Virus record (IMG/VR): IMGVR_UViG_3300049142_000052
Span: 1 to 55,974 of that record
Length of the DNA stretch: 55,974 nt
DNA from: a virus
Taxonomy: Duplodnaviria; Caudoviricetes
Direction: 5' to 3' (one strand)
Below are positions 9,402-41,292 of this stretch, piece after piece. Position numbers and translations under genes: made by a program. How positions within the stretch are numbered: position 1 is the stretch's first letter; each line of letters opens with the position of its first letter. The notes under the pieces were generated by a model that was not told the origin of the DNA, did no database searches, and saw only the letters and a program-made list of their open reading frames with translations.

Positions 9402-9842
9402 ATGGGTGCACGTGGTCCTATCGGAAAGCGCTCCGAGGAGCGCATGGGCCATCGCTCGAAGGAAGAGAAGAACTCGATCACGAAGGCTGCCTCAGGGGCA
9501 CCCATCGATCTACCGGATCTGCCCGACGCAGACCCGCTGTGGCACCCGATCGCGACGGACTGGTACTTGTCGCTGCGCGAGTCGGGCCAGGCCGCTTTCT
9601 ATCAGCCGTCGGACTGGGCGGTGGCCCGGTATGCCGCCGACCTGATGTCGAAGGTGCTGCTGTCGGAGCGCGGGCCGAACGGCCAGCTGGTGGCGGCGTT
9701 GAACTCGGTAATGTCGTCGCTGCTGACGACTGAGGGCGACCGCCGCCGGGCTCGCATGGAGCTGGAGCGGAAGAAGCCGGCCGGGACGAAGTTGGCGTCG
9801 GTGAGCCCGTTGGATTCCTACCGTGACATCGCCGGAGGCTGA
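9402..9842 (+). CDS. terS: Terminase small subunit
   Basis: RGPIGKRSEER; WHPIA..WY.SL.ESGQA.FYQPSDWA; LLTTEGDRRRAR. Confidence 0.9.
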   Translation: MGARGPIGKRSEERMGHRSKEEKNSITKAASGAPIDLPDLPDADPLWHPIATDWYLSLRESGQAAFYQPSDWAVARYAADLMSKVLLSERGPNGQLVAALNSVMSSLLTTEGDRRRARMELERKKPAGTKLASVSPLDSYRDIAGG

Positions 9843-11574
9843 CGGGCAGGTCCCGGACGTCGTCGAGCCTTTCACCCTCGGGCCGACGTGGAAGCGCGGC
9901 CCGGACGGCAAGTTCATCTTGCCGGAGTACACGCTGGGTTGGCAGTGTCTGGCCTGGACTAAGACGTATCTGCAGCACTACGTCGGGAAGGCGTGGCAGT
10001 ACACGCCCGAGCAGGCTCGCCTGACCCTGTGGTGGTACGCCATGGATCCGGAGACGAACCGGTTTCTGTACCGCGACGGCGTGATCCAGAGGCTGAAGGG
10101 CCATGGGAAGGACCCGCTGAAGGCGACGTGGGCGGGGTTCGAGTTCGTCGGTCCATGCCGGTTCGCTGAGGTCGCCGACGAGGACAACGAGTGGGGTATT
10201 CCGGCGGGGCAGCCGCTTGGGATGCAGCATCCTGCGGCATGGGTGCAGATGGCGGCCGTCAGCCAGGACCAGACGCGGAACACGATGACCCTGTTCCCGG
10301 GCTTGTTCTCGAAGCGGGCGATCGAGGAGTACCGCATCGACCTCGGCAAGGAGATCATCTATGCCGACAAGGGGCGGGCCCGGATCGAAGCGGTGACCTC
10401 GTCGCCGCGGGCCCTCGAAGGTGGGCGACCGACGGCCACCTACATGGGGGAGACGCATCACTGGCTGGAGTCGAACTCGGGCCACGAGATGGCGGCCGTG
10501 ATCGAGCGGAACGCGACTAAGTCGGCGGACGGGCAGTCTCGGACGTTGGCGGACACGAATGCGTTTGAGCCGGGTGAGGACTCGGTTGCGGAGCGCACTC
10601 GGGACGCCTACGAGGCTGCGGAAGCCGGCCGGGCCGCTGACACGGGGCTGTTCTATGACTCGTTGGAGGCTCCGCCTGAGGCGAAGTTGACGGAGGCGTG
10701 GATCGAGCCGACGCTGCGGGCGGTGCGTGGGGATTCGACGTGGCTGGACATCGGCCGGTTGAAGGCGTCGATCCTGGACCCGCGGAACCCTCCGTCCAGG
10801 TCGCGGCGGTTTTGGTACAACCAGATTGTCGCCGCTGAGGACGCGTGGATGGCCCGCTACGAGTGGGATGCCTGCAAGCGCGAGGATCTGCGCTTTGAGG
10901 ACGGTGACGAGGTCGTCCTGTTCTTCGACGGTTCCAAGAGTGACGATGCGACAGGCTTGTGCGTCTGTCGCATGTCGGACGGTCTCGTGACCGCGCTCGG
11001 TGTTTGGCAGAAGCCGGCGAACTGGCCGGCGCCGAACACTCCGGGTTTCGTGCCCTACCAGGTGCCGCGGGACGAGGTGCACGGCGTGGTGGAGAACGCG
11101 TTTGCCCGGTTCAAGGTGTTGGCGTTCTTCGCGGACCCGGGTTCCGGGCAGGACGACGACGGCGAGATGTACTGGGACTCCTACATCGACCTGTGGGGGC
11201 AGACCTGGGGGTCGAAGCTGGTCCTCCGGTCGGTGCTGTCGGGTCCGAAGGCGCACGCGGTGCGCTGGGATATGCGCGACTCCCGCAATCAGGAGCAGTT
11301 CACGGAGGCGGTGAAGCGCACGCACGCCGATGTGTTGGAGCGGACGCTCATCCATGACGGGCACAAGGTGCTCCGCACTCATGTGATCAATTCGCGACGG
11401 CGGACGAACCGGTGGGGTGTGACGATCGGCAAGGAGCACCGTGAGTCGGCTCGAAAGATCGACTTGGCGGTGTGCATGGTCGGGGCGCGGATGTTGCGCC
11501 GCATGATCCTCAACTCGCCGAAGCGGGCGAAGAAGAAAGCCACGGGCAAGGGACGGGTGGTGGTGCTGCGGTGA
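9823..11574 (+). CDS. terL: Terminase large subunit
   Basis: Walker A RLKGHGKD; AVSQDQT; ETHHW; nuclease FFDGSKSDDATG and KIDLAV. Confidence 0.95.
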   Translation: MTSPEADGQVPDVVEPFTLGPTWKRGPDGKFILPEYTLGWQCLAWTKTYLQHYVGKAWQYTPEQARLTLWWYAMDPETNRFLYRDGVIQRLKGHGKDPLKATWAGFEFVGPCRFAEVADEDNEWGIPAGQPLGMQHPAAWVQMAAVSQDQTRNTMTLFPGLFSKRAIEEYRIDLGKEIIYADKGRARIEAVTSSPRALEGGRPTATYMGETHHWLESNSGHEMAAVIERNATKSADGQSRTLADTNAFEPGEDSVAERTRDAYEAAEAGRAADTGLFYDSLEAPPEAKLTEAWIEPTLRAVRGDSTWLDIGRLKASILDPRNPPSRSRRFWYNQIVAAEDAWMARYEWDACKREDLRFEDGDEVVLFFDGSKSDDATGLCVCRMSDGLVTALGVWQKPANWPAPNTPGFVPYQVPRDEVHGVVENAFARFKVLAFFADPGSGQDDDGEMYWDSYIDLWGQTWGSKLVLRSVLSGPKAHAVRWDMRDSRNQEQFTEAVKRTHADVLERTLIHDGHKVLRTHVINSRRRTNRWGVTIGKEHRESARKIDLAVCMVGARMLRRMILNSPKRAKKKATGKGRVVVLR

Positions 11575-14498: not shown

Positions 14499-15452
14499 AT
14501 GGCTACGGCCCCCATCACTTCGAGCAATGTCCCGGGCGAACTGCTCCCGCGGACGATCACCGCTCCGATCTTCGACAAGTCGCAGGAGCAGTCCGCGGTG
14601 ATGGCGCTGGCGCGGCGGGCGCCGCTGTCGCTGGACGCCACCACGAGCGTGCCGATCCCGATGGACGTGCCGACCGCGGACTGGGTCGGGCAGGCGGCGA
14701 AGAAGCCGCTGTCGACGGGCGGCATCGACGTCAAGCAGATGCAGGCCAAGAAGCTGGCCGTGCTCATCCCGGTCGCGATGGAGGTGGCCCGCACGAACAC
14801 GGCCGGCCTCTACGACCAGCTGCAGAAGGATCTGCCGACGGCGTTCGCGCGGGCCTTCGACCACGCGGCGATCCACGGCAAGACCATGAAGGGCGCGGCG
14901 GGCCCGTTCACCGAGTACCTCGCCGCCACCAGCAACTCGGTGGCGCTGGGGACGGCGACGCAGGCGAACGGCGGGATCTGGGCCGACTTCGTGACCGGCA
15001 TGAGCGAGGTCATCGACGGCGACTGGGACTACACCGGCACGGTCGCGGACCACCGGCTGAAGCCGCAGCTGCTGCTGGCGACGGACACGACGGGGCGGCC
15101 GATCCTGGTGGACACGCAGACGCCGGGGACGGACATGGCGGCGGCGGGCACGCTGATCGGTGAGCCGCTGGCGTACTCCCGCAGCGTGTCGGGTAAGCAG
15201 CGCCGGCAGTCGGCGTCGACGGACACGGGGCTGCGGGCAATCGGCGGGGACTGGTCCCAGGCGGCGTATGGCGTGGGCATGGACATCACAATCCGGGTGT
15301 CCGACCAGGCGACCTACGTCGACGAGGACGGCGGCGTGCACTCGGCCTTCCAGGAGAATTTGGTGTTGATCTTGGCGGAGGCGTACTACGGCTTCGTCAT
15401 GGGCGACGTCGACGCGTTCGTGAAGTTCACCGGCACGCCGAGCGGTTCCTGA
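14499..15452 (+). CDS. Major capsid protein (HK97 fold)
   Basis: ADWVG, KKLAVLIP, FD.AAIHG, GDWSQ..YG, SAFQENLV.I.AE. Confidence 0.93.
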   Translation: MATAPITSSNVPGELLPRTITAPIFDKSQEQSAVMALARRAPLSLDATTSVPIPMDVPTADWVGQAAKKPLSTGGIDVKQMQAKKLAVLIPVAMEVARTNTAGLYDQLQKDLPTAFARAFDHAAIHGKTMKGAAGPFTEYLAATSNSVALGTATQANGGIWADFVTGMSEVIDGDWDYTGTVADHRLKPQLLLATDTTGRPILVDTQTPGTDMAAAGTLIGEPLAYSRSVSGKQRRQSASTDTGLRAIGGDWSQAAYGVGMDITIRVSDQATYVDEDGGVHSAFQENLVLILAEAYYGFVMGDVDAFVKFTGTPSGS

Positions 15453-19651: not shown

Positions 19652-22600
19652 GTGCCTGCTATCTCCGTCGGCTCCGTCGAAGTCGATGTCGTCCCCAACG
19701 CGAAGGGCATATACGCAAAGCTCAAGGAAGAGCTCGTACCAGCGGCTACCGATGCGGGCAAGGACGCGGGTGAGGCCGCCGGCAAGGCGTTCGGCCCTGC
19801 CATGCAAACCGCGATCGGCGACACAGTTGGAAGCCGGATCGGTGAGCAGATCGGTGAGCAGATTGCTGCTCGGATCGTCGCCCAGATCCGGGACTCGCTG
19901 CGGGATGGCGTTACGCAGGGCGGGCGGGCTGCTCGTCCTGCGGCGACCCGGCAGGGTGAGGAGACGGGCGGGGCGTTTGCCCGGTCGCTTCGAGCCCGAC
20001 TGCAGGCCGCGTTCCGCAGCATGCCGAAGCTCGATGTACGGCTGTCTGACACGGGTATCGACGCCGACCTCGCCCGGCTGCGGGCTCGGCTGGAGACGCT
20101 GGCCGGGAAGACGGTCGGGATCGACATTGATGCGGCGACCGCGCGGGCGGAGGCTGCGGACATTGAGGAGCGGCTGCGCCGTATCGGTGCCGCCCACCCC
20201 AACGTCGCCGTCCGCGCGGATACTGCGGCAGCGATCGCGCAGCTGCAGTTGCTGCAGCAGCAGATCGACGAGGTCGACCGGGACCCGCTGCGTATCCGTG
20301 TGGAGACGGACGGCACGCTTGGCACCCGGCTTCGGGCTGCGGTGCAGCAGGCTGAGGCGTCCCTACCGAACGTCAACATCACGGCGGACACCAATCCGGC
20401 GCAGGTCGAGGTGGCCCGGCTGCGGGCGCAGCTCACGGCTTTGACGGACGCCCGTATCGGCATCGACATCGATGCGGCCACGGCGATGGCTCGTCTCGAA
20501 GAGGTGCAGACGCGTCTGCAGCGTCTGTCCGCGTCGGACGCGGATGTCGCGGTGCGGGTAGACGCGGGTGCTGCCGCGGCGCAGCTTGCGGCGTTCCAGG
20601 CGCAGGTCGGTCGACTGGATGGCCGTCGGGTGCGTGTCGACATCGACACGGGTGTGGCGCAGGTGGCGCTGGGCAATCTGGCGTTCGCGGCTGTCGCTCT
20701 CGGGCCTGCGCTTTTGCCGATCCTTCCTGTGGCGGCTGCGGGTCTGGGCGCTATTGCAGCTGCGGCGACGGCGGCGGCTGTCGGTGTGGGTTCGATTGCT
20801 CTGGTGGCTGTGCCGGCGTTTGTGCAGATGGGCAAGGTCATGCAGGCGCAGAAGGCTGCCCAGGATGCTGCCACCAATGCCACGTTGAAGGGCGGGCAGG
20901 CGTCGTCTCAGGCGGCGCAGCGGTCGCTGCAGATGGCGTCGGCGCAGCAGTCGCTGGCGTCGGCTCACCGGAATGCCGCGCGGCAGATCCGGCAGGCTGA
21001 GCAGGGTGTCGCGGACGCGGCCCGTAACGCGGCGGAGGCGAACGAGCGGGCCGCCGAGCAGGTCAAGACGGCTCGCCGCGGGTTGGCAGATGCGGTGCAG
21101 CAGGCCGCGGACCGGCAGCGGCAGGCCGCCGAACAGGTCCGCAGCGCCGAGGAGTCCCTCGCGGACGCACAGCGCAACGCACGGCAGGCTCAGGAGGATC
21201 TGACCCAGGCGCGGGCGGATGCCGCCCAGCAGCTGCAGGATCTGGAGTCGCGGCTCGCGAACGCTCAGCTGTCCGAGCGGGACGCGGTTCTGCAGGTGCA
21301 GGAGGCCCGGGACCGGCTGCGTGCTGTACAGCGGGCGGGCTCGAAAGCCTCCTACCTGGAGCAGCAGCGGGCACAGCTTGCGCTCGACCAGGCGGTGCAG
21401 CGACTTCAGGATCAGCGGGCCGAGACGAAGGAACTGTCTGCGGAGAAGAAGAAGGCGGACAAGGCCGGCGTTGAGGGCTCCGACATCGTCCTGGATGCGC
21501 AGGAGCGGCTGCGGCAGGCCGAACTCGGTGTCACGAAGCAGCAGGAAACGCTGGCGAAGGCGCGTGCGGACGCGGCCCGGCAGGCGGTACAGGGCCAGCA
21601 GGACATCGCTGAGGCTCAGCAGCGGGTCGCCGAGGCGCAGCGGAACGTCACCCGCACGCAGGAGGACGGCGCCCGGTCGGTTGCCCGCGCGCAGGAGCAG
21701 CTTGCTGCCGCGCAGCAGTCGGCTGCGGATTCGATCGCCTCGGCTCAGCGTCAGATTGCCTCCGCGTCGCTTTCGGCGGCCGGGGGCGTGGATCAGGCTG
21801 CCATCGCGCAGGCCAAGTACCAGGCGGAGCTGGCAAAGCTGTCGCCGGCCGCGCGGGAGACGTTCGAGGCGTTCCTCGACCTGCGGTCCGCGTTCTCTGC
21901 GTGGTCGAAAAGTCTGCAGCCCGCCGTCATGCCGATCTTCACTCGTGCCCTGAACGGCTTGAAGAACAGTCTGCCGGGGTTGACACCGTTCGTGCTGGAG
22001 GCTGCGGACGCGATCAGTGGTTTGCAGGACCGAGCATCGCGTGGGTTCAAGTCGCCGTGGTGGAAGGAGTTCAAGGCAGACCTCGAGGGTTCCATCAAGC
22101 CAGCGATCACCGGCTTGGGTGTTTCCTTCGGGAACGTGTTCAAGGGCATGGCTGGCGTGCTGCAGGCCTTCTTCCCGCGCATGGATTCGATTTCCTCGCG
22201 GATGCAGACCATCACCGGCCGGTTCGCGAACTGGGGTACGAGCCTTAAGGGGTCGCCGGAGTTCGAGCGTTTCCTGTCGTATGCGTCGGAGCACGGGCCG
22301 ATCCTGGCGGACACCTTCCGGCAGATCGGGTCGGCGTTCATGAACGTCGGGCAGGCGCTGTCGCCGATCTCCGGTCCGCTGCTGAAGCTGATTGGCGGGG
22401 TAGCGGAGTTCATCGCGGTCGTCGCGGAAAAGGCGCCGTGGTACATCATGCTGCTCTACGGGATCGTCATCGCGACGAAGCTGTGGACGCTCGCGATGGC
22501 GGCCCTCAATTTCGTGATGACCGCAAACCCCTTCGTACTGCTCGGCATGGCGATCCTGGCGATCATCGCCGTAGTCATCTACGCCTACAACCGCTTCGGC

Positions 22601-24595
22601 TGGTTCCGGGCGGGCGTTCAGGCCGTGTGGGACGGAATCAAGGTGGGGGCGCTGTTCCTGTGGAACTCCGTCCTCAAGCCGGCCTTCAACGGGATCATGG
22701 CGGGCCTGAAGACGGTCGGTGGGTGGGCGCTGTGGCTGTGGAAAACGGCCATCAAGCCCGCATTTGACGGGATCGTCTTTGTCGGGCGGATCCTGCTGAC
22801 GGTGCTGGTGACAGCGGTACTGCTGCCGATCGTCGCGGCGATCAAACTGGTCGGCTGGTTCGGCAAGTGGCTGTGGAACACTGCGCTCAAGCCGGCATTC
22901 GATGCGATCGCCGCTGGAGCGTTGTGGTTGTGGAGCACTGCCTTCAAGCCTGCCTTCCAGTGGATCGGCGACAAGGCGAAGTGGCTGTGGAACAACGCCA
23001 TCAAACCGGCCTGGGCGGGGATCCAGTCCGGTGCGAAGTGGATGTGGGAGAAGGTCATCCGGCCGGTCTTCCGCGCCTTCATGGACGGGCTGAAGGAGCT
23101 CGGCCGCTGGGGCAAGTGGCTGTGGAAGGAAGCCATCAAGCCTGCCTGGGACGGGATCGTCTCCGCAGGTAAGTTCGCCTGGGAGAACGGCATCAAGCCC
23201 ATCTTCGACCGCTTCAAGTCGGTCGTCCGCAGCCTGAAGGGTGCTTTCGACAGCGCCGTGGGCGGGATCAAATCCGCCTGGGACAAGATCAAGTCGGTTT
23301 CAAAGCGGCCGGTCCAGTACGTCGTGGACGTCGTCTACAACAACGGCATCCGCGGCGTGTGGAACAAAGTCGCGGGCGCGTTCGGCGCCCCGAAGCTGGG
23401 TGCGTTCAAGTTCGCCTCCGGCGGCATCATGCCTGGCTACACGCCGGGTAAGGACGTCCACCGGTTCGTGTCTCCGACCGGCGGCCGGCTGGAGTTGTCC
23501 GGCGGCGAGGCCATCATGCGGCCGGAGTTCACCCGCGCGGTCGGTAGCGGGTTCGTGAACACGATGAACTCGGTTGCCCGGTCTCGTGGTACCGAGGGCG
23601 TCAAGGCGGCTTTGGCTCCGATGCTGGGCGGGAACCCGCGCACGCCGACGGACACGTCGCTGCGGTACAGCAGCGGCGGCATCTACCCGGTGCAGCGGTT
23701 CGCGGACGGCGGGATCTTCGGCTGGATCAAGGACCGGGCGTCGGATGCGGTCGGTGCTGGTTCGGCCGCCTGGAACAAGATCAAGGAGGGTGCCTCCTGG
23801 CTCGGTGACACCCTGGAAGCGTCCGCCCGCGCGGGTGTGAAGAACGTCGTCAACCCGCTGCTGAAGAACTTCCCGGGCATGGACACGGGCTTCGGTCGGA
23901 TGATCCGCCGCATCCCGACGCGGATCATCGACGCGCTGTTCGGCTACAGCAAGGAGGCCGACAAGCGTGGCGCTGGCGGCATCGGCGGGCCGCGGATCTC
24001 CGCAGCGCTGAAGTGGGCGAGGACGCAGGCTGGCCTGCCCTACCAGTGGGCGGGTAACGGCAACCCTAGCTGGGACTGCTCCGGTTTCATGAGCGCCATC
24101 GAGTCCGTCATCAGAGGTCAGAAGCCGCACCGCAGGTGGGCGACGATGGCGTTCTCCGGTCGGACGGCTCCGCCTGGCTGGGTGAAGAACGGCAACTCCG
24201 CGTTCAAGATCGGTATTACGAATGCGGGCGTCGGCCACACTGCGGGCACCCTCGGCAAGACCAACGTCGAGAGCCGGGGCGGCGACGGTGTGGTCGTCGG
24301 GTCCCGGGCCCGCGGCTACAAGGACAGCCTGTTCACGGACTGGTACGGGTTCATGCCCGGCAAGTACGACAACGGCGGCATGCTCCAGCCCGGCTTCAAC
24401 CTCGCCTACAACGGGACGGGGAGGCCGGAGCCCGTGCTGACCGGCGCCCAGTTCAACGCGCTCGCCCGTGGTGGTGGGCAGTTGGGCGACTTGCAGGTGT
24501 CGGTGTACGTCGGTGACCAGCAGATCACCGACATCGCACGGGCCGAGGTGCGCACGGCACAGGGCGAACTGATTCAGGTACTCAACGCGGGCTGA
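19652..24595 (+). CDS. Tape measure protein with C-terminal NlpC/P60-like domain
   Basis: 1647 aa; coiled coils; 22-aa WLWxxxIKPA repeats; GLPYQWAG...DCSGFMS...GHTAG. Confidence 0.92.
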   Translation: MPAISVGSVEVDVVPNAKGIYAKLKEELVPAATDAGKDAGEAAGKAFGPAMQTAIGDTVGSRIGEQIGEQIAARIVAQIRDSLRDGVTQGGRAARPAATRQGEETGGAFARSLRARLQAAFRSMPKLDVRLSDTGIDADLARLRARLETLAGKTVGIDIDAATARAEAADIEERLRRIGAAHPNVAVRADTAAAIAQLQLLQQQIDEVDRDPLRIRVETDGTLGTRLRAAVQQAEASLPNVNITADTNPAQVEVARLRAQLTALTDARIGIDIDAATAMARLEEVQTRLQRLSASDADVAVRVDAGAAAAQLAAFQAQVGRLDGRRVRVDIDTGVAQVALGNLAFAAVALGPALLPILPVAAAGLGAIAAAATAAAVGVGSIALVAVPAFVQMGKVMQAQKAAQDAATNATLKGGQASSQAAQRSLQMASAQQSLASAHRNAARQIRQAEQGVADAARNAAEANERAAEQVKTARRGLADAVQQAADRQRQAAEQVRSAEESLADAQRNARQAQEDLTQARADAAQQLQDLESRLANAQLSERDAVLQVQEARDRLRAVQRAGSKASYLEQQRAQLALDQAVQRLQDQRAETKELSAEKKKADKAGVEGSDIVLDAQERLRQAELGVTKQQETLAKARADAARQAVQGQQDIAEAQQRVAEAQRNVTRTQEDGARSVARAQEQLAAAQQSAADSIASAQRQIASASLSAAGGVDQAAIAQAKYQAELAKLSPAARETFEAFLDLRSAFSAWSKSLQPAVMPIFTRALNGLKNSLPGLTPFVLEAADAISGLQDRASRGFKSPWWKEFKADLEGSIKPAITGLGVSFGNVFKGMAGVLQAFFPRMDSISSRMQTITGRFANWGTSLKGSPEFERFLSYASEHGPILADTFRQIGSAFMNVGQALSPISGPLLKLIGGVAEFIAVVAEKAPWYIMLLYGIVIATKLWTLAMAALNFVMTANPFVLLGMAILAIIAVVIYAYNRFGWFRAGVQAVWDGIKVGALFLWNSVLKPAFNGIMAGLKTVGGWALWLWKTAIKPAFDGIVFVGRILLTVLVTAVLLPIVAAIKLVGWFGKWLWNTALKPAFDAIAAGALWLWSTAFKPAFQWIGDKAKWLWNNAIKPAWAGIQSGAKWMWEKVIRPVFRAFMDGLKELGRWGKWLWKEAIKPAWDGIVSAGKFAWENGIKPIFDRFKSVVRSLKGAFDSAVGGIKSAWDKIKSVSKRPVQYVVDVVYNNGIRGVWNKVAGAFGAPKLGAFKFASGGIMPGYTPGKDVHRFVSPTGGRLELSGGEAIMRPEFTRAVGSGFVNTMNSVARSRGTEGVKAALAPMLGGNPRTPTDTSLRYSSGGIYPVQRFADGGIFGWIKDRASDAVGAGSAAWNKIKEGASWLGDTLEASARAGVKNVVNPLLKNFPGMDTGFGRMIRRIPTRIIDALFGYSKEADKRGAGGIGGPRISAALKWARTQAGLPYQWAGNGNPSWDCSGFMSAIESVIRGQKPHRRWATMAFSGRTAPPGWVKNGNSAFKIGITNAGVGHTAGTLGKTNVESRGGDGVVVGSRARGYKDSLFTDWYGFMPGKYDNGGMLQPGFNLAYNGTGRPEPVLTGAQFNALARGGGQLGDLQVSVYVGDQQITDIARAEVRTAQGELIQVLNAG

Positions 24596-29181: not shown

Positions 29182-30048
29182 TTGGCTACGCCACCTTCAC
29201 CGGACCGCTACTACGCCGCCCTCAGAGCCGAAGGAGTGCGCACCGCTGAGTCGCCCGGCTGGCGCTCCCGTAACCGCAACCACAAGGGACCGTGGGGCCC
29301 GGTCAACGGCATCGTCATCCACCACACCGCCGGACGAGACAGCCTCCGCTTGTGCATCGAGGGCACCGCCGACCTGCCGGGCCCGCTCTGCCACACCCAC
29401 CTGTCCAAGGCAGGGGTGGCCACACTCGTCGGCTACGGCCGCGCCAACCACGCCGGCACGTTCGCCGCGAACGCGCACAACGCCGTCGTCGCCGAAGCCG
29501 CCATTCACCCGCGGCCCGACGCTGCGGAGCCGATCGACGGCAACAGGCACTACTACGGCATCGAGATCGAGAACCTCGGCAACGGCACGGACCCCTACCC
29601 CGAAGCGCAGTACGACCAAGCGGTCCGGTGGGCGGCGGCCATCTGCCGACTGCACGGCTGGACCGCGCACTCGGTCATCGGCCACAAGGAAGGCACCCGC
29701 CGCAAGATCGATCCCACGTTCGACATGGCAGTCTTCCGGGCGCGTGTCGCCGAACGTCTCAAGCATCCGGCTGACTGGAGCCCGGGGAGCGCGGCGACGC
29801 CGACTAAGCCGGCCACCGAACCGCCGAAGGAGGAGGGCGACATGCCGTCCGCGAAGGACATCGCAGCAGCGGTCTGGGAGCACCCGATCGAGAACCAGTT
29901 CCGCAAGGACAGCGCGGGCAAGCCTCGCAGGATCGCCGCCCAGGACTTCATGGAGTACGGCGACAAGCACCACGACGACATCGTGGCCCGCCTGGACCGG
30001 CTCACCGCCGCCATCGAACGCCTCACCGCCGCACTCATCAAGGAGTAG
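29182..30048 (+). CDS. Endolysin, N-acetylmuramoyl-L-alanine amidase (Amidase_2)
   Basis: IVIHHTAG, LPGPLCH, GRANHAG, YGIEIEN, VIGHKE...RKIDP; TTG start. Confidence 0.92.
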   Translation: MATPPSPDRYYAALRAEGVRTAESPGWRSRNRNHKGPWGPVNGIVIHHTAGRDSLRLCIEGTADLPGPLCHTHLSKAGVATLVGYGRANHAGTFAANAHNAVVAEAAIHPRPDAAEPIDGNRHYYGIEIENLGNGTDPYPEAQYDQAVRWAAAICRLHGWTAHSVIGHKEGTRRKIDPTFDMAVFRARVAERLKHPADWSPGSAATPTKPATEPPKEEGDMPSAKDIAAAVWEHPIENQFRKDSAGKPRRIAAQDFMEYGDKHHDDIVARLDRLTAAIERLTAALIKE

Positions 30049-33725: not shown

Positions 33726-33902
33726 TCAGTGGCCGCTGCCGGTGCACTTGCAGAACGAGCTCTGGCAGAAGTAGCAGCTCGGCTTCCCGTAGCAGCGACG
33801 GCAGTGATTCTCCTGTCGGCAGTACACCGGCTCTGTGTGTTCCTTCGCTGCTGCGCTGTTCGTCTCGTCGTACTCCTGGCGGCAGGTGGTGCATGTCGTC
33901 AT
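33726..33902 (-). CDS. Small Cys-rich protein (58 aa, 9 Cys; not in ORF track)
   Basis: MTTCTTCRQEYDETNSAAAKEHTEPVYCRQENHCRRCYGKPSCYFCQSSFCKCTGSGH*; -10-like CACACT 6 nt upstream. Confidence 0.6.
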   Translation of the reverse strand: MTTCTTCRQEYDETNSAAAKEHTEPVYCRQENHCRRCYGKPSCYFCQSSFCKCTGSGH

Positions 33903-34053
33903 GACGGGAGTGTGGCACGAGCTGGAGCCGTGTCCACAAACGACCGACTGTCGACAGGTCAGCGCTCAACTGCGTTACCGCAGCACGAGAATGACGAGAA
34001 CCCGTGTCCTTAACTATGTCGCGCAAACGGTTCAGAATCGCTACATTGGGTTC

Positions 34054-34647
34054 ATGAGAATCGGATACGGCCGGGTCTCCACCCGCGACCAGAACCCAGA
34101 CGCACAGGAGGACGCACTCAAGACCGCCAAGTGCGACCGCATCTTCGTCGACAAGGCATCTGGCAAGCTCGCCTCCCGACCCGAACTCGACAAGGCCCTC
34201 ATCGCCGCCCGCGAAGGCGACGAGTTCGTCATCACCAAGCTCGACCGCCTCGGTCGTTCCCTGAAAAACCTCATCGAGCTGTCCGACCGGCTGCGCGCCC
34301 AGAAGGTCAACCTCGTCGTCATCGACCAGGGCATCGACACCAGCACCCCCGCCGGCCGCATGTTCTTCCAGATCCTCGGCGCCATCGCAGAGTTCGAGCA
34401 CGCGATGATCGTGGAACGGACGCGTGACGGGCTGGAAGCCGCGCGAGCCCGCGGGCGGAAGGGCGGACGCAAGCAGGCTCTCAAGCCGCGACAGGTCAAG
34501 CTCGCTCAGGAGATGTACGACGAGCTAGGCGACGACGGCAAGCGCAAGCACACCGTGCAGGACATCGCCAACGAACTCGGCGTTGCCCGCACCACCATCT
34601 ACCGCTACCTGGAGCGGGGCGAAGTCCCACGGGAGGCGTCAACGTGA
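34054..34647 (+). CDS. Small serine recombinase (resolvase/invertase) with C-terminal HTH
   Basis: IGYGRVST.DQ, KLDRLGRS, GIDTSTPAGR, AEFE, GRKGGRK, GVARTTIYRYL. Confidence 0.95.
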   Translation: MRIGYGRVSTRDQNPDAQEDALKTAKCDRIFVDKASGKLASRPELDKALIAAREGDEFVITKLDRLGRSLKNLIELSDRLRAQKVNLVVIDQGIDTSTPAGRMFFQILGAIAEFEHAMIVERTRDGLEAARARGRKGGRKQALKPRQVKLAQEMYDELGDDGKRKHTVQDIANELGVARTTIYRYLERGEVPREAST

Positions 34648-37934: not shown

Positions 37935-38186
37935 GTGGACGAGCGTAAAGACCAGCCAGCCGCAGCGGAAAGACGGCGCCCGCCGGCCGTAGCCGCGGCC
38001 ACCCGGCTCAGCCCCGTACAGGAGGCCTACGCCGAGTACGCCAGCCACGCCACCCGGTGCACCGCCTGCCGTGACATCGAGCAGAGCTGCCTGGCTGGTA
38101 ACGAGCTGCACCGTACCTGGCGAGTCCTGGCGAACGCGGCCCTCGATCAGCTGGCCGGCAGGGCGCCGTCGCCTCCGAGGCAATGA
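37935..38186 (+). CDS. Small Zn-binding hypothetical protein (HxxxCxxC...C)
   Basis: RBS GGGAG; divergent from GntR gene. Confidence 0.6.
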   Translation: MDERKDQPAAAERRRPPAVAAATRLSPVQEAYAEYASHATRCTACRDIEQSCLAGNELHRTWRVLANAALDQLAGRAPSPPRQ

Positions 38187-38369
38187 TCGACGCGGATTCG
38201 ATACCAGGCAGGAAAGCCCAGGCCAGAGCCTCGACGGGCGGTCACGGAAACGTGACGACTGTTCACGTTCCGCATGTAAATGGGCGGCGCAGGCACTTCC
38301 GTTCCTGATCAACGTACTGTTGAATTCTGGTCTATAGCCCCGGTCAGAAATCGGCCGCAGCGGTGAAAT

Positions 38370-38612
38370 CTAGCCGTGAAGGAGGTCGACGACGTGTACC
38401 CGCAGAGCGTGAGCGATCAGCAGGAGGTCCGAGTACTGCGGATCCCGCACCGCGTTCTCGTAGCGCTGGATGCTCCTCCGCTCCATCCCGGCTAGATGTG
38501 CCAGCTCTTCCTGTGACAGGCCGGCCTGGCGACGTAAGTCGGCGATCCGATGCCCTAGGGCGACACGGCGTTGCGTGACCCAGTCGGGTCGGGGGTTACG
38601 GCGGGCTGGCAC
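38370..38612 (-). CDS. XRE-family HTH regulator containing a TTA codon
   Basis: RIADLRRQAGLSQEELA.LAG.ERRSIQRYE; Leu TTA at 38537-38535; start could extend to 38666. Confidence 0.85.
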   Translation of the reverse strand: MPARRNPRPDWVTQRRVALGHRIADLRRQAGLSQEELAHLAGMERRSIQRYENAVRDPQYSDLLLIAHALRVHVVDLLHG

Positions 38613-38854
38613 CCACGACACGCTTCGGTGTTCGTGATCTTGTGTCAGTACCCAAACGGTCGCCAAGCGATCAAGATTGAGTCCAGCCTGGAGGTGAGCT
38701 CACGCCGCAGGGTCGTCGAGAGTGTTCAGGAATCGAATACATGTTCACCCCTTCGGGTGAACCGCGCCCAGCCAGCGCATCCCGCACCACCCGCCGGGAA
38801 AACGGGCTACACCCCCCACGCCCAACCCCGTCGTCCGAGCACACAGGAGAAGGC

Positions 38855-39094
38855 ATGGACCGCCAGCAGATCCTCGACCTCTACGAGTGGGCGCCCGGGG
38901 TCTGTTTCCGTCATCCCGCGAAGGGTGAGGTCCCCACGGCCGTGGTCGGCGTTGTTCATCCGCGGGCCGCTGGCGAGAGGGAAGTGCGCGGCTGCGCCGA
39001 ATGCGTTCTCACCCTTGAGGGCGCCCGGCGTGAGCAAGCCGCCCGCACGGGCGGCGAGTACCAGCCGGGACGGCTCGGGAAGGTGTCGGGATAA
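38855..39094 (+). CDS. Small Zn-binding hypothetical protein
   Basis: RBS AGGAG; ILDLYEW..G.CFRHP...C.ECV. Confidence 0.65.
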   Translation: MDRQQILDLYEWAPGVCFRHPAKGEVPTAVVGVVHPRAAGEREVRGCAECVLTLEGARREQAARTGGEYQPGRLGKVSG

Positions 39095-39284
39095 CCCGTC
39101 CCAACAGGTCCAACGACGCTCTCAGGGGGCAGCTGCTTGGGGAGGATCTGGGGAGCGAGGTTCCCAGGGGAGCACCTGGGGAGGGGCAAGTTTCGATGTC
39201 AAAGGAACTCAAAGGATCCGGCGGGCAGTGAAAGGATGCTGGTCACGGGCGGTGCACCCCGTCACCGCTCCCGTCGTCGCAGAC

Positions 39285-39395
39285 CGCACCTCCCTCGCCT
39301 GGCAGAACTCCGGATACAACCAGCCGCCGCACACCGGCTTCTTCCTCGGCGACGGCATGCCGGCGGCACCGAGGCCGGTGGTCTACACGCCGTGA
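39285..39395 (+). pseudogene. 3' fragment of PL11 rhamnogalacturonan lyase (YesW/YesX-like) gene, likely att homology
   Basis: RTSLAWQNSGYNQPPHTGFFLGDGM...VYTP*, the characteristic PL11 C-terminal motif; no start codon or upstream homology. Confidence 0.75.
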
Positions 39396-39434
39396 GTCTC
39401 TGAACAGGGAAAATGCCGTCCGGCGCTTCATCGA

Positions 39435-39471
39435 AACGGCGGCCGACCGCGTACTGCGGTCGACCGCCGTT
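39435..39471. terminator. Hairpin between lyase fragment and integrase 3' end
   Basis: AACGGCGGCCGACCGC-GTACT-GCGGTCGACCGCCGTT. Confidence 0.7.
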
Positions 39472-39512
39472 GTCACGTTTTCTTCGCTGGGGAGGATCTG
39501 GGGAGATCCACT

Positions 39513-40829
39513 TCAAGAGCGCTCCCCAGGAGGCCCGTCAACCTCGGCCGGCTCCCCGGACATGAACCGCCCGATCGCCGCCCGGCCTCGGCTCCCGGAC
39601 TTCGGCTGGAAGTGCACATAGGTCCTGAGCGTGAACGCCGGATCGGTGTGCCCGAGCCATGCAGCCAACTGGGTAATGGTCTCACCCTCGGCCAGTACGA
39701 CGCTAGCGAAGGTGTGCCGCAGGACGTGGAAGCCGAACTCCCGCGGCATCTGCCACGTTTCCTTCCGCCACGGCTGTTTGCCGTTCTTGGGCTCCACGTA
39801 TGTGATCTCGGCGGGCGGAATGAGCCCGGCGTCGACGAGCGCCGGCTTCCAGTGCCGGTCGTTGAACGTGTCCTTGTTGATGGCCCCGCCGTTCAACCCG
39901 TTGGTGAACTGGGTGGTGGCGAGCAGGCGGACCGTCCGTTTGGGGCGCTCCTCCCAGGCGAGGCTGGGCCGCGCGGGATCAACCCAAGGCAGCGTCACCT
40001 CGATGGTGGGGAACCGGTTCGCGTACTCCTTGATGGCCTTTGCCAGTTCCGGAGCGCATGGGGCGACGCGCTCCTTGTTGCCCTTCGGCGGCCCGAACCC
40101 GAACTTGCCGTTCACTTTGATGATCTGCCGCACGACGTTGATGTCCTCGCCGTCCACGTCGTCGGGGGAGAAGCCGAGAGCTTCTCCTTGTCGCAGGCCC
40201 GCCCCGACGGCCAGGTCGACGAGAATGCGGTAGCGCTCCGGCAGCGCGAGCCGCACTGCTGCGACGGTCTGCTGCTCCCACGCCAGGGCCTTCGACTTGG
40301 GCAGGCGTGGCGCCCGCAGGTCGTCGTCCCGGAACGGGTTGACGGGGATCCGCTTGGCCTTGTGGGCGGCCTGCAGGATCGTGGAGAAGTGCGCCCAGGT
40401 GACGACGAGCGTGCCCACGTCGATGTGCTGCTCGGCCCGAGTCTGCCAGGCCTGGATCTCCTCATAGCCGATGCGGTTCAACGGCATCGCACCGATGTGA
40501 GGGAGGATGTGGTTGAACACCTTCGACCGCACCGACGCTCTGGTGGAGGGCGGATACCTGGTGTGCGGCCACCAGTGATTGCGCACGTAGTCTTCGAGCG
40601 TGATGGACCCGTCTCGCGGGTCGTACCACTCGCCCCGGCCGCTACCGGACTGAGCCTCGGCCAACCACTTCTTCGCCGCCGCCAGCTGCTTGTCGGGGAA
40701 CGAACGGGACCGCACGCCGGGAATGCCGGTGACCTTGTACCGCTTGCCCTGGCCGTGCCGCTCGGTGGGGACGGTGCGCTTGCCGTCGGGGCCCTTCTTG
40801 TACCAGCGGTCCTCGATGTACCCGGCCAC
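39513..40829 (-). CDS. int: Tyrosine integrase
   Basis: GAGLRQGEALG (R), PPKGNKER (K), FHVLRHTFAS (HxxR), LGH, TLRTYVH (Y). Confidence 0.95.
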   Translation of the reverse strand: MAGYIEDRWYKKGPDGKRTVPTERHGQGKRYKVTGIPGVRSRSFPDKQLAAAKKWLAEAQSGSGRGEWYDPRDGSITLEDYVRNHWWPHTRYPPSTRASVRSKVFNHILPHIGAMPLNRIGYEEIQAWQTRAEQHIDVGTLVVTWAHFSTILQAAHKAKRIPVNPFRDDDLRAPRLPKSKALAWEQQTVAAVRLALPERYRILVDLAVGAGLRQGEALGFSPDDVDGEDINVVRQIIKVNGKFGFGPPKGNKERVAPCAPELAKAIKEYANRFPTIEVTLPWVDPARPSLAWEERPKRTVRLLATTQFTNGLNGGAINKDTFNDRHWKPALVDAGLIPPAEITYVEPKNGKQPWRKETWQMPREFGFHVLRHTFASVVLAEGETITQLAAWLGHTDPAFTLRTYVHFQPKSGSRGRAAIGRFMSGEPAEVDGPPGERS

Positions 40830-40842
40830 TACGCCCCCTTGC

Positions 40843-41292
40843 TCAGACCCCGCTCATCGTCTCCGGGGAGGCATCGATGATCTCACCGCCGTACAACTGG
40901 AACCAATGTCCAGCCTCGAGGAACTGCTGGGTGGCGGGGTTCATGACGGCGGCGAACGCGCGCGTGGTCAGACCTGGGTTGATGTAGACGTGGACAACAC
41001 CCCTGTCCTCGGCGACGCCGGCGCCGATGGTGTACGGAAAACGTCCGTCGAGGATGTACTCGATGCGCAGCGGGCGACCGGGGGTGTCGCGGGAAACGAT
41101 CTCGTCCTCCCACAGTTGGAACCACTGCGCGGACTGCATGAATCGGTCGATCTCATCGTTCAGGGCGGGTACGACCTCCGCCAGGGGAGCGGTACCGTCG
41201 AGGCGGACCCGGACTCTGCCGCGGTCCTCGTCTATCTGGGCCAGACGGCCGGGCGTCAGCATGTCGCTGATTTCGTAGGTGACGTGCAGCAT
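40843..41292 (-). CDS. Conserved hypothetical protein with internal duplication, between repressor and integrase
   Basis: RBS GGAGG; repeats EDRG.V.V...F...WFQL...EI[VI]. Confidence 0.7.
   Translation of the reverse strand: MLHVTYEISDMLTPGRLAQIDEDRGRVRVRLDGTAPLAEVVPALNDEIDRFMQSAQWFQLWEDEIVSRDTPGRPLRIEYILDGRFPYTIGAGVAEDRGVVHVYINPGLTTRAFAAVMNPATQQFLEAGHWFQLYGGEIIDASPETMSGV

Follow-up and report, generated by a model that had tools for sequence, protein, structure and literature searches.

The phage genome fragment considered here is the IMG/VR record IMGVR_UViG_3300049142_000052, and we refer to its entire length of 55,974 bp, which is classed as linear and has a CheckV completeness of 89%, as the window. 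Our interest is in positions 39138-39529. An earlier note, made from the sequence alone, had described a start-less fragment of the C-terminus of a polysaccharide lyase family 11 (PL11) enzyme at this place, just past the stop codon of an integrase gene, followed by a hairpin and lying between two clusters of arm-type repeats, and it had proposed that the phage integrates into such a lyase gene. The fragment, the hairpin, and the repeat clusters are all there. On the evidence set out below, it is very likely that 39138-39529 is the phage attachment site (attP) of a temperate, siphovirus-like Streptomyces phage with a lambda-type tyrosine integrase, and that the core of this site was copied from the 3' end of a PL11 gene.

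The integrase gene (39513..40829, minus strand) encodes a protein of 438 aa that both Pfam and PHROG profiles recognize as a tyrosine integrase. It matches Phage_integrase (PF00589) with 49.6 bits (cut-off 27.1), in two stretches, the N-terminal SAM-like domain Phage_int_SAM_3 (PF14659) with 24.4 bits (cut-off 22.6), and the phrog_1 integrase with an E value of 3.5e-39; no Pfam arm-binding family was found in it at E values up to 1. The translation, read directly, contains GLRQGEAL, HVLRHTF, and LGHTDPAFTLRTYVHF, which may correspond to the catalytic pattern of R, K, H-x-x-R, H/W, and the Y nucleophile. A tblastn search of an isolated-phage collection returned 46 matching records, the best of them (SF3 and VWB) at ~26-27% identity and none reaching 60%, so that the integrase appears to belong to a clade with no isolated representative in that collection. 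It resembles its best matches, VWB and SF3, in being the tyrosine integrase of a temperate Streptomyces phage, but differs from them in sharing only 26% identity; VWB integrates into a tRNA-Arg gene. The attP region, searched as DNA against 50,697 phage records, had no match.

The common core of the site, by which we mean the block of identity with the chromosomal attachment site (attB), occupies 113 bp on the plus strand at 39283..39395, as delimited by a match to Pfam RGL11_C, by metagenome contigs, and by matches in Streptomyces genomes. It begins at the second base of a Tyr codon, ends at the last base of a stop codon, and contains the last 37 codons (the first of them partial) and the stop of a host PL11 rhamnogalacturonan lyase gene. 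Positions 39285-39392 translate to RTSLAWQNSGYNQPPHTGFFLGDGMPAAPRPVVYTP, followed by the stop at 39393-39395. The assignment of this fragment to the C-terminus of a PL11 lyase is borne out by its match to profile positions 460-490 of the 490 in RGL11_C (E = 1.3e-10; 41.1 bits, cut-off 27); no second RGL11_C match turned up when all six frames of the record were scanned. The fragment is embedded in an open reading frame (ORF) of 274 aa (38571..39395), of which the last 31 residues alone match the family.

This block stands centrally between the two clusters of arm-type repeats. The P arm holds four repeats in two pairs (39138..39183, plus strand), TGGGGAG at 39138 and 39149 and AGGGGAG at 39166 with TGGGGAG at 39177, spaced 11 bp start to start within each pair; the P' arm holds one pair (39488..39505, plus strand; TGGGGAG at 39488 and 39499), which is nearly invariant in an alignment of six copies. 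An inverted copy, CTGGGGAG on the minus strand, lies within the last codons of int at 39522..39529. That these clusters mean something is a claim that holds for their placement and pairing but not for their plain number. The record contains 7 copies of TGGGGAG against a shuffle mean of 10.5, and 5 of CTGGGGAG against 3.43 in shuffles, counts that are not above chance. Yet six of the seven TGGGGAG and all five CTGGGGAG fall within 39138-39529, and the paired form GGGGAG-N5-GGGGAG occurs three times in the record, always in the attP region (39139, 39167, and 39489; two left of the core block and one right), where 0.01 would be expected and none of 100 shuffles reached three. Relatives with integrase identities as low as 43% have these paired repeats in the equivalent position, while the central DNA is exchanged. 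The site has the organization of a lambda-type attP, with repeated arm sites flanking a core whose sequence differs from theirs.

Between the PL11 stop and the P' arm lies a conserved hairpin (39435..39471) with 16-nt arms, 94% complementary (one mismatch), and a 5-nt loop. In all five related aligned copies, its stem is kept by compensatory changes (15 pairs, 10 of them changed on both sides). Judged by its position and this conservation, the hairpin is probably a terminator for both the restored lyase gene and the convergent int; a scan of 38700-39700 for canonical promoters and terminators found none.

Matches to the core block outside this phage come from two sources. A search of 401 sampled Streptomyces genomes with the block (E ≤ 1e-10), a check that the earlier note had suggested, found it in 164 of them at 76-89% identity, nearly all over the same span, 39283-39396. 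In addition, nine soil-metagenome runs contain part of window positions 38000-41000, one of which, X1 (share 0.97), may be the source sample, and we aligned the contigs of four runs (X1 to X4) to the window. A 593-nt contig from X2 carries 39283-39395 without a single difference, in unlike sequence that extends for 111 nt before the block and 369 nt after it, and a 376-nt contig from X4 likewise carries 39283-39395 with no differences, with 115 nt of unlike sequence before and 148 nt after. X1 shows the same pattern as X2 and X4, and X3 has the same span with three differences. The consensus of the upstream flank is equal in X1, X2, and X4; translated manually, it reads ...ITTLLHDTH and then the Tyr codon straddling 39283, and it is to all appearance PL11 coding sequence (compare ...TLLHDTLYRTSLAWQN in the Streptomyces griseoflavus locus L003, introduced below). 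The phage contigs of X1 break at 39312 and 39366, which fits the presence of the block in two contexts within that run. Uncovered bins in X2 to X4, and four joints with sides of 24-33 letters, were left out of the evidence. These observations support the view that the X2 and X4 contigs represent attB, with predicted PL11 coding sequence upstream and non-phage sequence downstream.

In addition, X1 contains another int allele that differs at 39 of 388 nt (window positions 39630-40017), and thus at least two related phages coexist in that sample.

Scanning species-representative genomes for the integrase yielded 17 loci, of which 14 are in Streptomyces; in six of the 17 (L003 to L008) the integrase is 80-89% identical to that of the window. 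Four of these six, namely L003 in S. griseoflavus, L004, L005, and L008 in S. acidicola, have a full-length PL11 gene converging on int, which constitutes attL. The PL11 ORFs at L003 (623 aa) and L005 (890 aa) each span RGL11_C positions 1-490, and the attL PL11 genes also match the RGI_lyase N-domain (E values of 9.6e-236 and 3.9e-246); as far as domain content can tell, the target is a PL11 gene. Nucleotide similarity between the PL11 lysogens and the window extends from the early genes (~48-53 kb) through int and stops at 39283, or at 39297 for L004, part of which reads N. Placing attB inside a PL11 gene, as the earlier note did, is therefore upheld by these four attL junctions, by the X2 and X4 contigs, and by L007, a second integrase copy that belongs to a tandem pair with its outer ends in PL11. 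Whether related prophages insert elsewhere, for example in a tRNA gene, had been named as the way to disprove the idea. For the close relatives the outcome favors PL11: only one of the six (L006) sits in a different gene, and no tRNA lies within 10 kb of int at any of the 16 loci scanned. The other 11 loci, with integrases 45-62% identical, have no PL11 gene within the flanks examined.

Mapping attL and attR in genomes with close integrases showed repeats of the PL11 tail at the prophage ends. In S. griseoflavus (G001:C9:153254-242473) an element of ~89 kb is bounded by a direct repeat of 110 bp with one mismatch; in genome G003 an element of ~65 kb is bounded by 96 bp without mismatch; and in S. 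acidicola (G004), at 89.9 kb per unit, the repeat is 125 bp with four mismatches. The end of the repeat coincides with the stop codon in G001, falls just short of it in G003 (where the host has TAG and the phage TGA), and lies 12 bp past it in G004. As it ends at or near the stop in all three genomes, the phage supplies the stop and everything downstream. The attR of the L005 prophage (in G002) was not among the matches listed. On contig C111 of G004, att-type sites at ~18.9, ~108.7, and ~198.6 kb (L008, L007, and L026) correspond to attL, an attP-type site, and attR, L007 being 89.9 kb from L008 and in the attP arrangement. Two 89.9-kb elements would thus stand in tandem in the PL11 tail of this genome, which could be a true double lysogen or an effect of assembly. 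In the relatives, then, attP duplicates the 3' end of its target, and the target ORF is complete.

Viral contigs tell the same story from the phage side. Among the 15 IMG/VR contigs that encode a related integrase, seven carry a PL11 tail of 33-42 aa, all with an integrase 74-96% identical to that of the window and with arm repeats on both sides; the tail is absent from the other eight, those with an integrase ≤71% identical. All nine attP-type copies (the window, the seven contigs, and L007) keep the reading frame and end at the same ...TP-stop, and their tails depart from that of the window at 4-14 of the 37 residues, as would fit phages that each match the allele of their own host.

Elements of this group come in two sizes. 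Those of S. griseoflavus and S. acidicola are ~89-90 kb and several viral contigs (those behind L058, L059, L061, and L063) are 88-93 kb, while the window, the G003 element, and other contigs form a smaller class of ~56-65 kb.

We infer that the exchange at this site is made by the integrase and not by host recombination. Bound to the arm pairs (39138-39183 and 39488-39505) and to the core at ~39300, the integrase would recombine attP with the identical lyase tail in the chromosome, most likely with the crossover close to the 5' block edge, within TGGCAGAAC or immediately past it. The resulting attL would consist of the host gene up to the crossover, then ~29 phage-borne codons, the stop, and the hairpin, facing int, and attR would consist of the P arm, an orphan copy of the tail, and the original downstream DNA of the gene. 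The lyase ORF would stay full length with its protein tail unchanged, and the downstream hairpin alone would be exchanged. The proposal that the phage restores or swaps the last ~36 residues and the terminator of the enzyme is thus right about restoration; since the block is identical to the host allele over 113 bp, lysogeny changes no lyase residue, and no residue is swapped.

The likely point of crossover can be narrowed using the mismatches in the related lysogens. In S. acidicola, attL equals attP over the whole block, and the four differences in attR all fall at block position 52 or beyond; the sole mismatch in S. griseoflavus is at block position 6. If these differences predate integration, the exchange occurred between block positions 7 and 51 (window 39289-39333). 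The motif TGGCWGAAC falls inside this bracket as TGGCAGAAC (39300..39308, plus strand; block positions 18-26), a candidate core or crossover motif of the integrase. A 10-bp perfect palindrome, CGGCATGCCG (39353-39362), was also considered as the crossover site and rejected, because it is not kept in L005 or L007 and lies to the right of the first S. acidicola mismatch.

Further evidence on this motif comes from the L006 element, whose integrase is 84% identical and whose arm repeats are the same, but which sits in the gene of a sigma-70-region-2 protein (L033:1204-1470 and L028:1657-1920, in G005:C10), without an adjoining PL11 gene. It is bounded by a direct repeat of 149 bp with one mismatch. 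Past this block, 33 of 105 bases distinguish the phage-borne tail from that of the host, and of the 35 codons 3 are changed nonsynonymously and 22 synonymously; the predominance of synonymous differences means that the phage copy has been kept as coding sequence for the host protein. The PL11 and L006 blocks have TGGCAGAAC in common near their 5' edges (positions 18-26 and 7-15, respectively).

Codons that are rare in Streptomyces, AGA, TAT, ACA, and CAA among them, appear in the phage-borne tail of L006.

We searched for TGGCWGAAC in the 700 nt downstream of int, in the phage sense, at 30 loci; the motif was defined after seeing the data, and the statistics are indicative only. It is present at 19 of the 30, of which 12 carry the PL11 tail and have the motif by descent. 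The others are L006 (the sigma-factor-like gene), L009 (beside a sulfatase gene), L012, L013, L014, L017, and L018; elsewhere in the 486 kb examined, both strands included, there are only seven further copies. The neighbor of int at L013, L014, and L017 is a gene with AAA_33 and metallophosphoesterase domains, recognized by Pfam at L013 and by a like C-terminus at L014 and L017, and the neighboring frame scanned at L012 gave no family. The sulfatase (L009) and AAA_33 + Metallophos (L012 to L014, L017, and L018) targets are assigned by adjacency to int together with the 9-mer, and TGGCTGAAC is a candidate for the edge of the common core in these two lineages. By adjacency alone, int also neighbors an ABC-permease gene (L015) and a YceI gene (L016). 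The occurrence of the 9-mer at the same place in four unrelated genes is hard to ascribe to chance, and these four targets together with the bracket suggest that 39300-39308 is likely the core or crossover site; its exact position we infer from them.

At L009 (integrase 61% identical), the sulfatase ORF (L009:11230-12648, minus strand) converges on int and continues without a stop across the arm repeats as far as the int 3' end. In that lineage the host protein may gain a phage-encoded C-terminal extension instead of a restored tail.

It is tempting to extend this picture to the whole clade, although we would put the chances of the following at somewhat below even. The integrases may recognize a short TGGCWGAAC core, encoding Trp-Gln/Leu-Asn, and the clade may have hopped among unrelated protein genes in which this core happens to occur, namely those for a PL11 lyase, a sigma-70-region-2 protein, a sulfatase, and an AAA_33 + metallophosphoesterase protein. 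For both mapped targets (PL11 and the sigma-factor-like gene), the target's tail would be carried in attP, as up to 149 bp of identical sequence plus a synonymously recoded remainder, so that the host gene survives, and the arm sites would stay constant.

A different purpose can be imagined for the same event, namely that integration in the PL11 tail serves to change the lyase, whether in its C-terminus, its terminator, or its expression, and in this way alters pectin use. Phage DNA that brings its own hairpin takes the place of the native downstream region, and the gene comes to converge on int, so that transcript stability or read-through could change; moreover, given the 4-14 of 37 residues by which tails differ among phages, a non-cognate host would receive altered residues. 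For the phage of the window, however, the block is identical to the host allele at 113 of 113 positions, the three mapped lysogens show 0-1 residue of difference between the phage-borne tail and the host tail, and the pattern of L006 (33 of 105 bases, with 3 of 35 codons nonsynonymous) is the signature of preserving the host protein. We consider this explanation improbable. The suggestion in the earlier note that lysogens might differ in their use of plant polysaccharides is, at the level of sequence, unsupported, the 113 bp being identical to the host allele with no residue change, and a change in pectin degradation upon lysogeny is likewise unsupported.

Less probable again is that the phage enters by host homologous recombination (Campbell-type and RecA-dependent) over the 113 bp, with the integrase used otherwise or for excision only. 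Perfect identity over 113 bp suffices for RecA exchange, and the blocks of this clade, at 96-149 bp, are long compared with the 25-76-bp cores reported for tRNA sites of M. abscessus prophages (PMC8092301). Against this stand the location of int beside the block and the conserved paired arms on both sides of it, which are kept down to 43% integrase identity. That four unrelated targets have the 9-mer close to the 5' block edge is what site-specific recognition predicts and homology alone does not, and all four informative S. acidicola mismatches lie on one side. Taken together, these features make a RecA-dependent entry very unlikely.

The weakest alternative holds that an imprecise excision left the PL11 fragment behind as a passive relic, that the real crossover lies elsewhere near int, and that the lyase is not targeted. 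It can draw on the general opinion that long host-derived identity blocks in attP arise from imprecise excision, and on a locus (L050, in G231) with a PL11 tail and a sequence similar to the phage hairpin region but no int nearby, so that the P' side of the phage may descend from a host lyase locus, but it has next to no credibility when exactly the core block is duplicated at both ends of related prophages, is central between the arm clusters, keeps its frame in all nine attP-type copies, and varies among phages in step with host alleles, and when int abuts a complete PL11 gene in four lysogens. None of these three explanations fits the data as well as integrase-driven integration into the PL11 tail.

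The L050 locus (G231:C4:296673-299863) consists of a PL11 tail followed by 192 nt that are 76% similar to the post-stop hairpin region of the phage, with no integrase within 1.5 kb. It is either the scar of a lost prophage or a hint that the P' side of the phage descends from a host lyase locus.

Several observations weigh against integration by the integrase into the PL11 tail as we describe it. No lysogen of this exact phage was found, and its exact host was not found among the 401 sampled Streptomyces genomes, in which the best block identity is 89%. The X2 and X4 contigs are short, and their right flank could be the P' arm of a divergent relative instead of attB. The use of another gene by L006 means that the choice of target is not set by integrase similarity alone. 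The attL and attR mismatches that bracket the crossover could postdate integration, and neither inverted core-type half-sites nor symmetry around TGGCAGAAC was recognized by eye. Finally, the hairpin at 39435-39471 does not pass as a stem plus T-run, its T-rich stretch starting ~8 nt past the stem.

The remainder of the window is that of a siphovirus-like temperate phage, according to PHROG scans of 30 chosen ORFs. These identified a large terminase (9823-11571), a head protease and a scaffold protein, a major head protein (14499-15449), a tape measure protein (19652-24592), an endolysin (29182-30045), and a helix-turn-helix repressor-like gene (38370-38666, minus strand). Because these were all found together with the integrase, the record is that of a phage. 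A second recombinase, a serine recombinase of the DNA-invertase type (270 aa; 33835-34644, plus strand; phrog_125, E = 3.6e-67), has its gene at a distance of 5 kb from that of the tyrosine integrase, and L007 contains a stretch that is 82.6% similar to it.

Two smaller features adjoin the arms. A second family of repeats in the P arm has two copies ending in AAAGGAT, 20 bp apart (39204..39237, plus strand), which are candidate sites for accessory factors; similar ACTCAAAGG repeats, compared by eye, occur in L052 and also in L006, where they lie in the P arm of the element. Directly left of attP is a small Cys-containing ORF of 78 aa (38856..39094, plus strand) that matched neither Pfam nor PHROG. 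Relatives have it in the same position, and L007 and L010 contain homologous ORFs. It is, speculatively, a candidate excision factor.

The L010 contig, labeled as a metagenome-assembled genome of Kofleriaceae, and the IMG/VR contig L059 have identical attP-type regions, integrases 62% identical to that of the window, and Streptomyces-phage-like gene content. The taxonomic label of L010 is probably a binning artifact, or the contig is a free phage.

The target had been called unusual, and the 3' end of a protein gene is indeed unusual for tyrosine integrases, yet it is not new. Lambdoid phage 21 integrates into icd of Escherichia coli. The element e14 also inserts there, and its description reports a duplicated tail (pseudo-icd') of 163 bp, restoration of the gene, and one conservative residue change upon excision (PMC6379469). 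The PL11 system resembles e14 in being a tyrosine-integrase element in the 3' end of a protein gene that carries a replacement tail and leaves a functional gene and an orphan tail. It differs from e14 in its host phylum, in targeting a secreted polysaccharide lyase instead of a central metabolic enzyme, in its uncharacterized integrase clade, and in a block of 113 bp that is identical to the host allele. Closer in host range are prophages of Bifidobacterium, which are reported to have a tyrosine integrase acting at the dnaJ2 3' end, with a 35-bp core, a conserved exchange region of 7 bp, and a reconstructed gene, an arrangement that the authors regard as unusual (PMC6109161). These too are actinobacterial phages with a tyrosine integrase and an attachment site over the end of a protein gene that is rebuilt; the core of 35 bp contrasts with the 113 bp found here (96-149 bp in relatives), which spans ~37 codons and the stop.

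Integrases that use tRNA or tmRNA genes offer a parallel of another kind. Of the 15 Int-Y sites of M. abscessus prophages, 10 lie over tRNA genes, and the cores measure 25-76 bp (PMC8092301). There, as here, attP duplicates the target from the crossover to the end of the gene, and the gene is rebuilt; in contrast to those tRNA sites, the target here is protein coding, and the loci are free of nearby tRNA genes (16 of 16). The S. ambofaciens prophage Samy was considered as a relative and rejected, since it is described as using a serine integrase and a repeat of 12 bp (PMC11302927). Our literature searches, which supplementary files lay outside of, found no printed report of a PL11 lyase as an integration target; the papers on this enzyme that came up dealt, by title and opening of the abstract, with fungi or plants. 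The principle is therefore known, from e14 in icd and bifidophages in dnaJ2; new are the target, the integrase clade, and the 9-mer shared across targets.

These results add to Streptomyces a well-documented example of a tyrosine integrase whose target is the 3' end of a protein gene, and the example covers the free phage, the attB form, and lysogens both single and tandem. The integration systems in common use in this genus are based on serine integrases or on tyrosine integrases that target tRNA genes. A module of int and attP from this phage could serve as an integration vector that leaves its target gene intact. As the target tail occurs in 164 of the 401 sampled Streptomyces genomes, the range of strains open to lysogeny may be limited by attB. 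The 9-mer found across four targets also provides a testable idea of how the specificity of attachment sites shifts. If the proposed hopping of the clade among host genes is true, the clade would constitute a set of orthogonal integration sites for Streptomyces engineering and a natural series of retargeted integrases that shows how switching of attB happens.

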